Sequence record: PV805631.1
DNA: 64,000 nt
Origin: a phage
Reading direction: 5' to 3' (one strand)
Shown here: in pieces, positions 1,510 to 6,206 of the stretch
How the letters are laid out: every line of letters starts with the position of its first letter
Position numbering within the stretch: position 1 is the stretch's first letter
Translations under genes and position numbers: made by a program
The notes under the pieces: model-generated
Told to the model about the DNA's origin: nothing
What the model saw: the letters and a program-made list of their open reading frames with translations, nothing else
The model's database searches: none

Positions 1510-1567
1510 GGGTATCCCTTATTTGGGGTTATAAACCCTGAAAGGAATCCCTCTAGTTTGACCTCCC

Positions 1568-1597
1568 TATTGAAGGGAGGTCTTTTTTGACTTAAAC
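1568..1597 (+). terminator. Intrinsic terminator
   Basis: Stem GACCTCCCT / AGGGAGGTC followed by TTTTTT. Confidence 0.75.
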
Positions 1598-1984: not shown

Positions 1985-2311
1985 ATGAAAACTTTAATTG
2001 CTGTTGTTCTAGTAGCTCTATCAGTTCTGTCATTCGGTGCTCAAGCATCTAGTCGTGCAACCTTGTTGGAATCTGCTGCTGATTACAAAGCTAATAATGC
2101 AAACTTTGTGAATCAAGGTTACTTCATGGGCATGGTTACTATGGGTGTGGAAGCAGGAAAGAATTGTGTACCTGACGGTATAAAATTAGGGCACATTTTT
2201 GACAGAGTGGCATCTATTATTCTGTATGACCGAAAGGTTAATGCAGTAAAAGTACCATCAGACATGGTTCTGTTAGCGATTAATACAGCCTATCCCTGCG
2301 TTAAATCTTAA
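1985..2311 (+). CDS. Hypothetical secreted/periplasmic protein
   Basis: N-terminal signal-peptide-like 'MKTLIAVVLVALSVLSFGAQA'. Confidence 0.45.
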   Translation: MKTLIAVVLVALSVLSFGAQASSRATLLESAADYKANNANFVNQGYFMGMVTMGVEAGKNCVPDGIKLGHIFDRVASIILYDRKVNAVKVPSDMVLLAINTAYPCVKS

Positions 2312-2345
2312 TTAGTAATTCCATTAACTTTAGGAGAGTAAGTAA

Positions 2346-3398
2346 ATGGCGAGCATTGACTCCTTGACTGTATGTAATACACGCCAAGCCCGTAACTTTA
2401 TTATCCGTGCCTTGCAAGCAGGTAACGTACCGTTCCTGACTTCATCACCAGGTATGGGTAAGTCTGCAATTATTCGTTCTATTGCAGAAGAATTTGGTAT
2501 GAAGCTGATTGACCATCGTCTGTCTACTTCTGCCCCGGAAGACTTATCTGGTCTACCATTCCGTAATGGTGACCGTGCAGAGTTTATTCCATTTGCTGAC
2601 TTATTCCCTATCGAGGGTGACAAAGTACCGGATGGTTATAATGGCTGGCTCCTGTTCCTTGATGAGTTCAACTCAGCTAAGAAAGAAGTAGTGGCTGCTG
2701 CATACAAACTAATTCTCGACCGCATGACCGGACAGAAAAAACTTCACCCTAATGTGATGATTATCTGTGCCGGTAACAAAGCTACTGACCGAGCCATAGT
2801 TAACCCACTGGGTACTGCAATGCAGTCTCGTGTTGTCCACTTCGAAATGGAACTCGACTTCGACATCTTTGTTGAAGACGTAATGATTCCACAAGAATGG
2901 GATGAGCGTCTGGTTGCATTCTTACATGCTAACCCTGGTTATCTGCATGACTTCGACCCCGCACATAAGAATAAAACATTCTGTTGCCCACGTACCTGGG
3001 ACTTTGTTAACAAAGACCTCAAGAACCGACCAGAAGGTGCTTTGCCTGATGAAGATTCTATCTACTATGCAGGCCACGTTACTGCTGGTAAAGCTACAGA
3101 GTTTGTTCAGTTCACTCAGGTATACAATCGTATGATTACGATTGAGAAGGTAGTAAAAGACCCGTTAGGCTGTGCACTACCGGAAGATAATAACCTGTGT
3201 TGGGCTACTGTTAACCATCTGGCTAACAAAACTACTGAAGATAACTTCGCTGATGTTCTTCAGTACATTGAACGCTTTAAAACGTTCACCCATAAGATTC
3301 TGTACTTCCGTACAGTAGGAAAAGCATTACCAGAAATTCAGGCTACCCCTGAATGGCGTAAGGCTGCTGCCAATATCTCTCGTTACATTCACGGATAA
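2346..3398 (+). CDS. AAA+ ATPase (MoxR/AAA_5-like)
   Basis: Walker A 'SPGMGKS', Walker B 'LLFLDEFN', sensor-like 'ICAGN'; RBS AGGAGAG upstream of the ATG. Confidence 0.75.
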   Translation: MASIDSLTVCNTRQARNFIIRALQAGNVPFLTSSPGMGKSAIIRSIAEEFGMKLIDHRLSTSAPEDLSGLPFRNGDRAEFIPFADLFPIEGDKVPDGYNGWLLFLDEFNSAKKEVVAAAYKLILDRMTGQKKLHPNVMIICAGNKATDRAIVNPLGTAMQSRVVHFEMELDFDIFVEDVMIPQEWDERLVAFLHANPGYLHDFDPAHKNKTFCCPRTWDFVNKDLKNRPEGALPDEDSIYYAGHVTAGKATEFVQFTQVYNRMITIEKVVKDPLGCALPEDNNLCWATVNHLANKTTEDNFADVLQYIERFKTFTHKILYFRTVGKALPEIQATPEWRKAAANISRYIHG

Positions 3399-3401
3399 AC
3401 T

Positions 3402-3878
3402 ATGAACTGGCATGAACTATTTGTTTATAGCAATGGTTCCCTTTACTGGAAAGTAAGTAGGGGCTGCGTAAAAGCAGGTGCCATTGCTGGTTGTTTGGAT
3501 AACAGCGGGTATTTGCGTGTTAAATGTAATAGAAAAAATCATTTAGTTCACCGCATAATTTATGAAATGGAAATTGGTCCAATTCCTGATGGTATGCAGG
3601 TAGACCATATTGACCACAATAGGCTAAATAATTACCCAAGTAATTTCCGTTTAGTAACAAACATGGTTAATAGTAAAAACCAAACCATGAGAGTAACAAA
3701 TACATCAGGTGTGACAGGAGTATACTGGCACACTCGGGATAAAATTTGGACTGCCCATATAAATGACAATGGTAAACAAATTTACTTAGGAAAATTTAAC
3801 AGTAAACAAGAAGCCATTTCAGCCAGAAAGGAAGCAGAAAAATTATTGGGCTACCATATAAATCATGGGGAACCCTAA
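3402..3878 (+). mobile_element. Free-standing HNH homing endonuclease (HNH plus AP2-like DNA-binding domain)
   Basis: 'DHIDHNRLNN...NFRLVT' HNH-type motif, then 'SGVTGVYWHTRDKIWTAHI...QIYLGKFNSKQEAISARKEA' AP2-like; sits between the ATPase and vWA genes. Confidence 0.75.
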
Positions 3879-5053
3879 TGAATAGTATACCTACGCATAC
3901 TCTCACTGATGAACGGTTAATGAGGGAGTACGATAGAATACAAGCGCAGGCATTTCTCGGACGTAGTGCAGCGTTTTTTGGTTCATTGCTGTGTAGTCTT
4001 AAGTTCTCATGGAAACGTGAGGGCTGTCCCACTGCATGTACCGACGGGATAGAACTCCATTTCAACCCAGACTTCTTTATCTGGATGTGTCCTGATGCAA
4101 GGGAAACAGTGCTAATGCACGAACTTTGGCATGTGGCATATCTGCATGGAATCCGTTGTGGAAGCCGTGATCCAGAAGTCTGGAACCAGGCATGTGACCA
4201 CTTCATTAACCTTCAGTTAGAGGAAGATGGTTACAAGTTCACTGGTATCGACAAAGGCATTTGCAAAGACCCTCAATATAAAGGATGGGTCGAAGAAGAC
4301 ATCTACGATGACCTGATGAAGAACCCTCAGAAAAGGCAGAAGCCGTCGGGGGGAGCTGGAGCAGGTCTTGCTGGCGACATGAAAGCTCCCTCTTCGGGGC
4401 AGTCCCAGGGTGCTGTTGTCAACAACGTAGTACGTGCAATACAAAGCCAGAAGATGGCTGGTGGAACGATGCCCGGTAAAGGTGCTGGTCGTATGGAAGA
4501 GGTTATTACCCAATTCCTTAAACCAGTGGTTCCGTGGCAGGAAGTCCTGATGAACTTCTTTACCGACATTGATGATACGCATTATACGTGGGCCAGACCC
4601 AACCGTCGTTTCACTGACGTCTATCTACCTTCTCTGGAAGATGATGAAGGACGTTTACGACACTTAGCCTATTTTGAGGATGTATCCGGTTCTATTAGTA
4701 GTGCTGACTCTCTGCGTTTTAACTCAGAGGTTGCCTACGTTAAGAGCCAGTTCAATCCTAAGAAGATGACCCTAATTACCTTCGACGATATTATCCAAGA
4801 AGAAATAGACATCACTGAAGAAGATACTTTTGAAGAGATTAAGATTACTGGACGAGGGGGTACAAACCTTGAACCAGTGCGTGAATGGATTATTAAGAAT
4901 AAGCCAACCGCTGCAATCATATTCTCTGATATGTATGTTCGCCCTATGGAAGATTTACCATTTGATATTCCTATCATCTGGTGTGTTCTGAATAATCCTA
5001 ATGCTACCGTACCTTTTGGGGAGGTAGTTCATATCCCTAAAGGAATGAAATAA
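3878..5053 (+). CDS. vWA-domain protein with N-terminal putative metallopeptidase-like region (partner of the AAA+ ATPase)
   Basis: 'VLMHELWHVAYLHG' (HExxH), C-terminal vWA-like 'ITGRGGTNLEPV...AAIIFSDMYV'. Confidence 0.65.
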   Translation: MNSIPTHTLTDERLMREYDRIQAQAFLGRSAAFFGSLLCSLKFSWKREGCPTACTDGIELHFNPDFFIWMCPDARETVLMHELWHVAYLHGIRCGSRDPEVWNQACDHFINLQLEEDGYKFTGIDKGICKDPQYKGWVEEDIYDDLMKNPQKRQKPSGGAGAGLAGDMKAPSSGQSQGAVVNNVVRAIQSQKMAGGTMPGKGAGRMEEVITQFLKPVVPWQEVLMNFFTDIDDTHYTWARPNRRFTDVYLPSLEDDEGRLRHLAYFEDVSGSISSADSLRFNSEVAYVKSQFNPKKMTLITFDDIIQEEIDITEEDTFEEIKITGRGGTNLEPVREWIIKNKPTAAIIFSDMYVRPMEDLPFDIPIIWCVLNNPNATVPFGEVVHIPKGMK

Positions 5054-5559
5054 TGATTGTTAATGGTAATTCTCTATACCGTTCATCTCAATTGCTGGAT
5101 GTCCCAGACCGTAAGGTATCCGAGCATGGTGTAAGCTATGGATTAGGTGAAGCTGGTTATGATATTCGTATCAAACAAGACATTACCTTCTATCGCTTAT
5201 TTGGGTTAATTCCAATGGTGAAAATCGTCGATGGAAAACAAGTATCACGCCATCTCGGTAAATTCGCATTAGCTTCAGCAATTGAGAAGTTCAACATGTC
5301 ACCCTCGTGTGTAGCTATCGTTCACGATAAGTCCACATGGGCAAGACGTGCATTATCTGTGTTCAATACCGTAATAGAACCAGGATGGAAAGGGTATCTT
5401 ACCCTTGAACTGGTCTATCACGGTCGTAAGAAACTGCATATCCCGGCTGGTGCTGGGATAGCTCAAGTATTATTTCATCTGGTTCAAGAGCCTGCTAATT
5501 ACAACGGCAAGTATCAGAATCAGGAGGACAAACCAGTAGCTGCAAGAAGCAGTAAATAA
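5053..5559 (+). CDS. dcd: dCTP deaminase-like protein
   Basis: 'IEPGWKGYLTLELVYHG...YNGKYQNQ' parallels E. coli Dcd 'IDPGWSGCIVLEF...YNRREDAKYRNQQG' as recalled. Confidence 0.65.
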   Translation: MIVNGNSLYRSSQLLDVPDRKVSEHGVSYGLGEAGYDIRIKQDITFYRLFGLIPMVKIVDGKQVSRHLGKFALASAIEKFNMSPSCVAIVHDKSTWARRALSVFNTVIEPGWKGYLTLELVYHGRKKLHIPAGAGIAQVLFHLVQEPANYNGKYQNQEDKPVAARSSK

Positions 5560-5568
5560 GGAAACAAC

Positions 5569-5769
5569 ATGTCTGTATTTCAAGTAACTCCTGTTGATAG
5601 TACCCAACGTAAAACTATTGTTGCAACTAATGTAGTAGATGTAGATGAAACCCCAGCTGGTGCTGTAATCCATCTGATTGATGGGCGAACTGTAACTGTA
5701 AAAGAAAGCTATCGTTCAGTACGTGGTTACGTCCGTAAAGCTTTAGCTGCTGTCTCTGATGCAGAGTAA
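5569..5769 (+). CDS. Hypothetical protein
   Basis: 66-aa ORF in operon context. Confidence 0.35.
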   Translation: MSVFQVTPVDSTQRKTIVATNVVDVDETPAGAVIHLIDGRTVTVKESYRSVRGYVRKALAAVSDAE

Positions 5770-5780
5770 GTAGCTGCCTA

Positions 5781-5808
5781 AATAGCCCAACTATGCTGGG
5801 CTATTTGT
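5781..5808 (+). terminator. Hairpin, possible weak terminator
   Basis: Stem AATAGCCCA / TGGGCTATT with a short T-tract. Confidence 0.3.
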
Positions 5809-6103
5809 GAAGAAACTAACTCAACCTCACATAGGAACCATCATGGAATCTTTAGCAGCAATCCTCGTTCTGTTATTTGCACTTGCTATATACCTTATCC
5901 CTACTATTATTGCTTTTGCACGAGGCCATGCCTCTAAGTGGGGCATTGGTATACTCAATATCGTATTAGGCTGGTCTTTAGTCTTCTGGGTAGTAGCACT
6001 GATTTGGTCACTGTCTAACAAAGGGCAGTCTCAGACTACAATCGTTAACGTTGGCAGTGGTAACCAGTACAACGTGTCTCAAACGAGCCAGTCTGATAAG
6101 TAA
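5807..6103 (+). CDS. Superinfection-immunity-like small membrane protein
   Basis: Two TM segments; 'PTIIAFARGH...ILNIVLGWSLVFWVVALIWSL' matches the Imm_superinfect-type motif as recalled. Confidence 0.55.
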   Translation: MKKLTQPHIGTIMESLAAILVLLFALAIYLIPTIIAFARGHASKWGIGILNIVLGWSLVFWVVALIWSLSNKGQSQTTIVNVGSGNQYNVSQTSQSDK

Positions 6104-6177: not shown

Positions 6178-6206
6178 AAGCCCACCTAACCCGTGGGCTT
6201 TTTTTA
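6178..6206 (+). terminator. Intrinsic terminator
   Basis: Stem AAGCCCAC / GTGGGCTT followed by TTTTTTT. Confidence 0.75.

Follow-up and report, generated by a model that had tools for sequence, protein, structure and literature searches.

The window analysed here is a 64,000-nucleotide stretch of phage DNA (sequence record PV805631.1), and two of its + strand genes, gp24 and gp25, are the subject of this analysis. Positions 2000–5600 of the window correspond to Escherichia phage vB_EcoP_G7C (HQ259105 / NC_015933) with 100% identity over the full length in a megablast search. G7C is an N4-like podophage (Schitoviridae, Gamaleyavirus), and subtraction of 7515 converts a coordinate of its record into a window coordinate. 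The RefSeq record labels the gene at 2346–3398 as gp24, 'ATPase; similar to N4 gp24', the gene at 3878–5053 as gp25, 'VWA-like domain-containing protein; similar to N4 gp25', and gp24.1, which is located between them, as 'HNH endonuclease'. A first-pass annotation of this DNA had placed both open reading frames exactly (2346–3398, +, 350 amino acids (aa); 3878–5053, +, 391 aa) and had read them as a MoxR-like AAA+ ATPase paired with a metallopeptidase-like vWA protein. This interpretation of the pair is supported. The gp24–gp25 locus is an annotated member of an already described architecture and contains nothing unexpected for a specialist. The new elements are the distribution of the pair across different genetic elements, its conserved synteny, the variable third genes that accompany it and an ACD motif that is marked by inteins.

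Features of gp24 and gp25 in the window:
2346–3398 (+): gp24, predicted MoxR-class (helix-2-insert clade) AAA+ ATPase, 350 aa; AAA+ core at about aa 1–180, family-specific helical C-terminal domain at aa 187–344
2448–2465 (+): Walker A of gp24, PGMGKS
2511–2642 (+): conserved insert at the helix 2 position of gp24, between strand 2 and strand 3 of the AAA+ core (aa 56–99, beginning DHRLSTSAPEDLSGLP)
2655–2666 (+): Walker B of gp24, FLDE
2769–2777 (+): sensor 1 of gp24, AGN
2826–2831 (+): Arg finger of gp24, SR
3878–5053 (+): gp25, 391 aa; zincin-like metallopeptidase domain at about aa 1–150, flexible Gly/Ala/Ser-rich linker at about aa 150–260, minimal vWA domain at aa 263–386
4118–4147 (+): HExxHxxxxH motif of gp25, HELWHVAYLH
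4118–4198 (+): predicted metal and catalytic site of gp25, H81-E82-x-x-H85-x4-H90, R93, R97 and A105-C106-D107
4679–4693 (+): first part of the metal-ion-dependent adhesion site (MIDAS) of gp25, DVSGS
4679–4930 (+): MIDAS of the vWA domain, D268-x-S270-G-S272, T329 (GGT) and D351 (SD)

The ATPase gp24 and the peptidase-vWA protein gp25

The sequence of gp24 strongly supports the prediction of a catalytically competent MoxR-class AAA+ ATPase. The Walker A and Walker B motifs, sensor 1 and the Arg finger are conserved at nearly 100% in 140 homologues. In an alignment of 35 phage homologues, P35, G38, K39, S40, D106, E107, N144, R162 and R216 are invariant, and the same sequences share a further invariant segment, D56-H-R-x2-T-S-x-P-x-D-x2-G-x-P (D56, R58, T61, S62, P64, D66, G69 and P71). 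Homologues from N4-like phages of many hosts are approximately 52% identical. The profile searches that the first-pass annotation had set as its own check detect an ATPase domain in gp24 with Pfam AAA (E 2.4e-6, 28.4 bits, cut-off 21.2), and PHROG 1297 'ATPase' matches with E 4.5e-134. The MoxR-like assignment is borne out by the sequence motifs and by the structure, but not by the Pfam family AAA_5 (PF07728), against which gp24 scores 17.8 bits, under the gathering cut-off of 22; the gp24 family is too divergent for this curated model.

The AlphaFold2 model of gp24 (predicted local distance difference test (pLDDT) 87.6) exhibits the AAA+ strand order. No regular helix is present from strand E52–58 to strand E100–106; a 40-residue non-helical conserved segment (aa 59–99) is found there instead, and this segment is modelled at low confidence (pLDDT ~55). 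A short hairpin (aa 127–135) is located ahead of the sensor-1 strand E137–144. The replacement of helix 2 and the pre-sensor-1 hairpin match the two marks of the helix-2-insert clade, namely an insert in helix 2 and a pre-sensor-1 hairpin (PMC7159879), and on the model and the motifs gp24 is therefore classed as a member of this clade, which comprises MoxR, dynein-midasin, chelatase and YifB. A structure search retrieved CbbQ, dynein, NorQ and midasin as the closest solved folds. The C-terminal domain (aa 186–350) has no Pfam match.

In gp25, an HExxH-containing N-terminal region is followed by a C-terminal vWA domain, as had been claimed. The protein matches Pfam DUF2201_N, 'putative metallopeptidase' (E 1.3e-54, 186.1 bits), and then, in N-to-C order, DUF2201, 'VWA-like' (E 2.9e-34, 118.3 bits); both scores are far beyond chance, and the metallopeptidase-like and VWA-like domains expected from the profile searches are thus both detected. 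The vWA region has the Rossmann-like alpha/beta fold. The DUF2201_N plus DUF2201 architecture is identical in all 120 gp25 homologues listed. Homologues are approximately 50% identical across N4-like phages, and 970 matches were obtained at E<1e-5.

The predicted active site is highly conserved. H81, E82, H85, R93, R97, A105, D107, D268, S270, G271, S272, T329 and D351 are invariant in 36 phage sequences. H90 is nearly invariant in the same set and is Asp in two sequences, a replacement that fits a metal ligand. The same residues are conserved at nearly 100% in 79 genome-collection and 79 viral homologues, with the exception of E82, which is kept in 151 of the 156 homologues scored and lost in 5 of the 79 genome-collection sequences. 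Both H90 and D107 are candidates for the third metal ligand and are conserved in 77 and 79 of the 79 genome-collection homologues, respectively. The five sequences that have lost the Glu of HExxH carry T, A or L in its place and retain the two His residues of the motif as well as H90, D107 and the complete MIDAS; such proteins may have lost peptidase activity while the binding of metal and substrate persists. Taken from the sequence, there is a strong case that gp25 is the dedicated vWA partner of gp24 and that its zincin-type site is under strong purifying selection.

Inteins (Pfam Intein_splicing and a Hint domain) were observed in two gp25 homologues, P0248 (701 aa) and P0244 (519 aa). In both, the insertion site is exactly A105|C106 of the invariant ACD motif, which corresponds to nucleotides (nt) 4190–4198 of the window. 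Inteins typically lodge in catalytic sites, and their presence within ACD suggests that this motif is functionally central in gp25.

The annotation of gp25 homologues in public records is frequently misleading. In RefSeq phage records they are often labelled 'HNH endonuclease' (NC_019526, RaK2 gp481; NC_070858; NC_031063); these proteins contain no HNH domain and consist of DUF2201_N and DUF2201. The annotation of PHROG 1314 carries the same 'HNH endonuclease' label and may be the source of the mislabelling.

Linkage, distribution and gene order of the pair

The linkage of the two genes makes a strong case that gp24 and gp25 are one co-inherited module. Of the 70 IMG/VR viral loci with enough upstream sequence, 69 have a gp24-like ATPase gene ahead of the vWA gene in the same orientation; so do approximately 70 of the 80 loci of the GTDB genome collection, which are mostly bacterial chromosomes. 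The two genes abut in 28 viral loci, and more than 400 bp is inserted between them in 33. In G7C the genes are not adjacent: a homing endonuclease gene at 3402–3878, overlooked in the first-pass annotation, separates them.

Out of 1.84 billion cluster representatives, 22,106 match the gp25 profile at E<=1e-3. By tblastn, homologues are present in 692 phage records and on 93 plasmids, 30 of which are typed as conjugative. The hosts of Schitoviridae that carry gp25 include Escherichia, Pseudomonas, Vibrio, Klebsiella, Erwinia, Rhizobium and Achromobacter. Full-length homologues with 24–29% identity are found in RaK2/121Q-like and PA5oct-like jumbo phages. The homology is confined to the zincin domain in rV5-like phages, where the zincin-only homologue is sometimes labelled 'putative anti-sigma factor'.

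Gene order around the pair was compared in Schitoviridae-like contigs, with neighbouring genes labelled by G7C proteins. The order is always the same and on one strand: RNAP1/RNAP2, the ATPase gene, the vWA gene, (dCTP deaminase, ThyX, rIIA/B), helicase and DNA polymerase. Where the genome is compact, nothing separates the pair from the helicase or DNA polymerase genes. Phage N4 itself has the order of G7C (RNAP1/RNAP2, gp24, gp25, dCTP deaminase, ThyX), with family identity of approximately 50–60%; the HNH homing endonuclease between the genes of G7C is the only difference. PMC4193335 places N4 gp24 ('unknown') and gp25 ('vWFA domain') among the 14 core genes of N4-like phages and among the middle transcripts, and PMC2784036 lists the function of both as unknown.

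N4-like blocks were also observed outside phage records. A 727-kb contig of the isolate genome Mesorhizobium yinganensis CN2-181 carries gp24, gp25, dCTP deaminase and ThyX (locus L004, 4854–12279; 45% identity to gp25), and the block adjoins the housekeeping genes ribBA and chorismate synthase. This arrangement suggests an integrated N4-like element or remnant, which would be unexpected for a family regarded as strictly lytic. A 297-kb contig of a Roseococcus metagenome-assembled genome (L003) and a 153-kb Mesorhizobium contig (P0153) stand alongside it. The 75-kb Acinetobacter baumannii 'plasmid' pRBH2-3 (NZ_CP110465; L083) encodes a single-subunit phage-type RNA polymerase, a gp24-like ATPase, an HNH gene and a gp25 homologue, and appears to be the genome of an N4-like phage entered in the database as a plasmid.

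A third gene accompanies the pair in other contexts. In the genome-collection loci, a gene for a protein of ~311 aa, here termed f1, is located between or just ahead of the pair in 39 loci. The genes around these loci are of kinds usual on mobile elements and encode PRTRC ThiF, PRTRC_E, RNase H, Siphovirus Gp157, Mom, a DUF4942 methyltransferase and an SNF2-type helicase. Integrative and conjugative elements (ICEs) carry PRTRC as a cassette (PMC3318190). The complete ATPase-f1-vWA triad is present on plasmid 1 of Burkholderia pseudomallei TSV202 (typed as conjugative, MOBH, MPF_T), as confirmed with hidden Markov models (HMMs; E 9e-45 for the ATPase, 1e-73 for f1 and 1e-62 for the vWA protein). 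Genes of the T2SS/T4P/T4SS-family ATPase, the TrbC/VirB2, VirB3 and VirB4 families, a TraI-domain protein and TraD are located immediately downstream of this triad. Around the plasmid and ICE-like loci, the flanks examined showed no virion genes. A different third gene, g217, encodes ~217 aa and occurs in at least 19 viral contigs, which are judged to be marine on their IMG source identifiers only. Neither f1 nor g217 has a Pfam or NCBIfam match, the two are unrelated to each other (hhalign probability 0.8%), and their HMMs find no homologue in the window. The third genes (f1 or g217) are located as follows:
Loci L012–L081: for example, L075, 5054–5989
Locus L082: 11013–11942
Loci L133–L161: for example, L133, 5345–6007

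The inserted homing endonuclease and the probable transcription unit

Other features of the region are:
3402–3878 (+): gp24.1, free-standing HNH_3 plus AP2 homing endonuclease, 158 aa, in the gp24/gp25 junction
1560–1582 (+): terminator-like hairpin that closes the gp17 unit, found by hairpin scan and annotated in the record as stem_loop too; likely upstream boundary of the transcription unit with gp24–gp25
6178–6200 (+): next terminator-like hairpin, found by hairpin scan

The product of gp24.1 matches Pfam HNH_3 (E 9e-18), AP2 (E 6.5e-7) and PHROG 99 (E 2.6e-63). The gene is absent from phage PhAPEC7, in which gp24 and gp25 are spaced by 7 bp, and from many other relatives. The identity between G7C and PhAPEC7 ends directly past the gp24 stop codon. 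The absence from PhAPEC7 and the position of this break indicate that gp24.1 is a recent passenger; it is no part of the gp24/gp25 machine. Judged by eye, gp25 seems to differ more from PhAPEC7 in its first ~60 nt, next to the insert, than gp24 does at its end on the other side, which is identical in the two phages.

Another insertion was observed within gp24 itself. In the Gamaleyavirus relative U1G (NC_070872; L165, 647–2581), as in P0141, P0145 and P0201, gp24 is split into two open reading frames by an insert of ~940 bp, which carries an HNH gene annotated 'phage intron'. A match to a group I intron in the split gp24 of U1G is sub-threshold in Rfam (23.7 bits versus 50, E 0.005), and an intron is not claimed. 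Overall, the gp24–gp25 locus looks like a hotspot for homing elements.

No terminator-like hairpin was found on the + strand between 1582 and 6178, and TAATG stop/start overlaps are present at 3876–3880 (gp24.1/gp25) and 5051–5055 (the end of gp25). Given these overlaps and the absence of a hairpin, the genes from gp17.1 through gp27.1, including gp24-gp24.1-gp25-gp26, are probably co-transcribed, with predicted translational coupling at the overlaps. The nucleotide-metabolism genes dCTP deaminase and ThyX are located directly downstream of the pair. Farther along, a small membrane protein is encoded at 5807–6103 (+), probably within the same + strand unit as gp24–gp26; the record annotates it as an Imm-like protein for 'immunity to superinfection', similar to Imm of the T4-type phage JS98.

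Directly upstream of gp24, gp17.3 (1985–2311, +) encodes 108 aa with a signal-peptide-like N-terminus. This protein has a weak match to Pfam Rap1a immunity (E 1.4e-3), and its relatives are annotated 'Tai4'. If this label is right, a lytic phage carries an immunity protein against a type VI secretion amidase effector. Scans of gp24, gp25 and gp17.3 against PADLOC and NCBIfam were uninformative; PADLOC gave no match apart from a stray one to DolB (E 0.002).

Comparison with known systems and proposed function

The closest described relatives of the pair are found in jumbo phages. RaK2 gp482/gp481 has the same two-gene architecture, its ATPase is annotated 'similar to N4 Gp24', and a tblastn search with gp25 detects homology at 24% identity over 93% of the gp25 length. 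Since these genes are homologous to gp24 and gp25, the architecture is already on record. With ~425 and 461 aa, the two proteins of RaK2 exceed those of G7C in length, and they are encoded beside virion structural genes; downstream of the pair are a DprA-like gene and a gene for thymidylate synthase. Iyer et al. 2021 (PMC7824862) describe the same MoxR plus metallopeptidase-vWA architecture in group 2.2 jumbo phages and propose a role in virion assembly with proteolytic processing. Their proposal takes as its analogue a MoxR/vWA pair on which tail assembly in Acidianus two-tailed virus (ATV) depends. This virus-encoded couple, reported to be required for tail development (cited in PMC7824862 and PMC7159879), has no peptidase domain, and its setting is an archaeal virus with extracellular tail growth.

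Compared with the cellular MoxR/vWA couples, gp24/gp25 exhibits several discrepancies. The vWA partners in NorQ/NorD, CbbQ/CbbO, RavA/ViaA and midasin are devoid of a zincin domain, unlike gp25. The vWA domain of gp25 is minimal (~125 aa), and no obvious pore-penetrating 'finger' was seen, in contrast to the cellular partners. Conversely, gp24 has a 160-aa C-terminal helical domain of its own. The clients of the cellular couples are metalloenzymes or ribosome assembly factors. In NorQ/NorD, the ATPase hexamer binds one vWA protein, the finger of which plugs the pore; a second contact is formed through the C-terminus, and ATP-driven twisting acts on the linker of the vWA protein (PMC9976466, PMC13036017).

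The 'ternary' MoxR-vWA conflict systems (VMAP, iSTAND, FtsH, beta-propeller; Kaur et al. 2020) combine a core with a lineage-specific third gene, and the bacterial, plasmid and some viral homologues of gp24/gp25 likewise have f1 or g217. G7C differs from these systems: it has no third gene, and a zincin effector is fused N-terminally to the vWA domain. A defence-type ternary system was rejected for the G7C pair, which has neither a third component nor a PADLOC match.

The combination of an AAA+ motor with an HExxH zinc protease is also known from FtsH and from Cdc48/p97 with Wss1/SPRTN. The likeness is a functional analogy only: gp24 belongs to a different AAA+ clade than FtsH and Cdc48, and the activities of the pair reside on two polypeptides bridged by the vWA domain.

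We tentatively propose, at somewhat less than even confidence, that gp24/gp25 is an ATP-driven remodelling and cleavage machine with a conserved intracellular role in the middle phase that is not virion-specific. gp24 would form a hexameric ring, as NorQ/NorD, CbbQ/CbbO and midasin suggest. The vWA domain of gp25 would dock on this ring, capture an acidic residue of the substrate through the MIDAS ion, or both. ATP hydrolysis would pull or twist through the flexible gp25 linker, and the HExxH domain would cut the exposed substrate, so that the whole would amount to a split version of an AAA+ metalloprotease. Such a role would be tied to the transcription-to-replication module and to the establishment of mobile elements, and the machine would act on a conserved phage-encoded or universal protein. 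A non-virion role, in replication or element establishment, is weighted somewhat above virion morphogenesis because the RNAP/replication synteny is invariant in Schitoviridae, the N4 genes are reported as middle-class transcripts, and the plasmid and ICE-like flanks that were examined showed no virion genes.

Several observations weigh against this proposal. The sub-threshold AAA_5 score belongs here, as does the structural comparison of the N-terminal domain of gp25, which matched no solved zincin structure in result lists saturated by vWA domains; when PDB sequences were searched with the gp25 profile, only marginal vWA matches came up. A position in the middle gene block does not fix the time of action. 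The gene of the decoration protein gp17 is located ~840 bp upstream of the pair in G7C, four genes annotated 'virion structural protein' and one Hsp70-like gene directly precede the pair in RaK2, and the TSV202 triad abuts type IV secretion genes; these three neighbourhoods fit an assembly chaperone for a large envelope-spanning machine. Finally, the literature on DUF2201-type pairs and on N4 gp24/gp25 yielded genome descriptions and no functional study. A search for 'DUF2201' returned irrelevant papers only, and the text of the CRISPRi-ART paper does not mention phage N4 or N4 gp24/gp25.

Virion morphogenesis, which the same neighbourhoods fit, is the best of the alternatives, possible although on balance unlikely. 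According to this explanation, a chaperone-protease would help in the assembly of a large virion component, be it the capsid, the tail or the 3,500-aa RNA polymerase packaged in the virion, and structural proteins would be processed by the zincin domain. The proposal of Iyer et al. and the ATV tail precedent (PMC7824862, PMC7159879) point in this direction; so do the 'second structural module' that PMC4193335 describes near the gp24/gp25 homologues of roseophages, and the core status and slow evolution of the genes, which resemble those of morphogenesis genes. However, all Schitoviridae-like contigs examined place the pair in the RNAP/replication block and not among late structural genes, and the plasmid and ICE-like homologues likewise lack virion genes in their examined flanks. 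The gp24/gp25 homologues are not among the entries seen of the RPP1/RLP1 virion protein table (PMC4193335), and proteolytic capsid maturation is not reported in one Schitoviridae structure paper. The virion-assembly proposal made for jumbo phages fits the Schitoviridae and plasmid contexts less well.

A host take-over or counter-defence protease is improbable. Its vWA/MIDAS would capture a host protein, the ATPase would extract it and the zincin would destroy it, akin to the ArdC zincins of conjugative elements. Lytic phages, conjugative plasmids and ICE-like islands share the module, and each of them has to establish itself in a new cell. The bacterial islands carry Mom, the orphan DUF4942 methyltransferase and similar anti-restriction-type genes, and MoxR/vWA pairs also serve in conflict systems of bacteria (PMC7159879). 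Nevertheless, counter-defence genes are normally variable and accessory, whereas gp24 and gp25 are core genes with ~50% identity across phages of alpha-, beta- and gamma-proteobacteria, and this explanation is considered less likely because the genes evolve so slowly. There is no PADLOC match, and f1 and g217, the possible specificity genes, are absent from the window.

A chaperone for cofactor insertion, comparable to CobS/CobT, BchI/BchD, NorQ/NorD or CoxD/CoxE, is very unlikely. The pair would load metal into an enzyme of the phage or of the host, and the HExxH motif would handle the metal and not act as a peptidase. Most characterised MoxR/vWA couples do insert metals or activate enzymes (PMC13036017, PMC9976466), and nucleotide-metabolism enzymes are encoded downstream in both G7C (dCTP deaminase, ThyX) and RaK2 (thymidylate synthase). 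However, retention of the general-base Glu of HExxH across the scored homologues points to hydrolysis and places metal insertion below counter-defence. In addition, the downstream enzymes are missing in many lineages that retain the pair, and the plasmid and ICE contexts offer no obvious metalloenzyme client. The last alternative, that gp24 is a clamp-loader-like or initiator-like replication AAA+ protein that is only incidentally next to gp25, was rejected as scarcely credible on the helix-2 insert, which occurs together with the pre-sensor-1 hairpin, and on the near-obligate vWA linkage over more than 140 loci in phages, plasmids and chromosomes; moreover, the top structural matches of gp24 are MoxR, dynein and midasin.

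A considerably more speculative idea, to which we give a low probability, is that the pair serves mobile elements as an essential 'segregase-protease': proteins attached tightly or covalently to DNA that is entering the cell or replicating would be extracted and cut. In N4-like phages, the candidate substrates at the transcription-to-replication switch would be the virion RNA polymerase that is injected or a topoisomerase that is trapped; in conjugative elements, the candidate would be the relaxase. If true, the pair would be the prokaryotic mobile-element counterpart of Cdc48/p97 with Wss1/SPRTN. This activity would explain the core status of the genes, their position between RNAP and DNA polymerase, and their recurrence beside helicase, RNase H and type IV secretion genes on plasmids and ICEs.

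gp24 and gp25 are among the few genes common to every N4-like phage and are conserved like the polymerases, and approximately twenty years of N4 genomics have passed without an assigned function. More than 20,000 sequence clusters from podophages, jumbo phages, conjugative plasmids and integrative elements share the architecture. Identification of the substrate would close a real gap in the understanding of the N4 life cycle and would show what a protease-coupled MoxR/vWA motor does.

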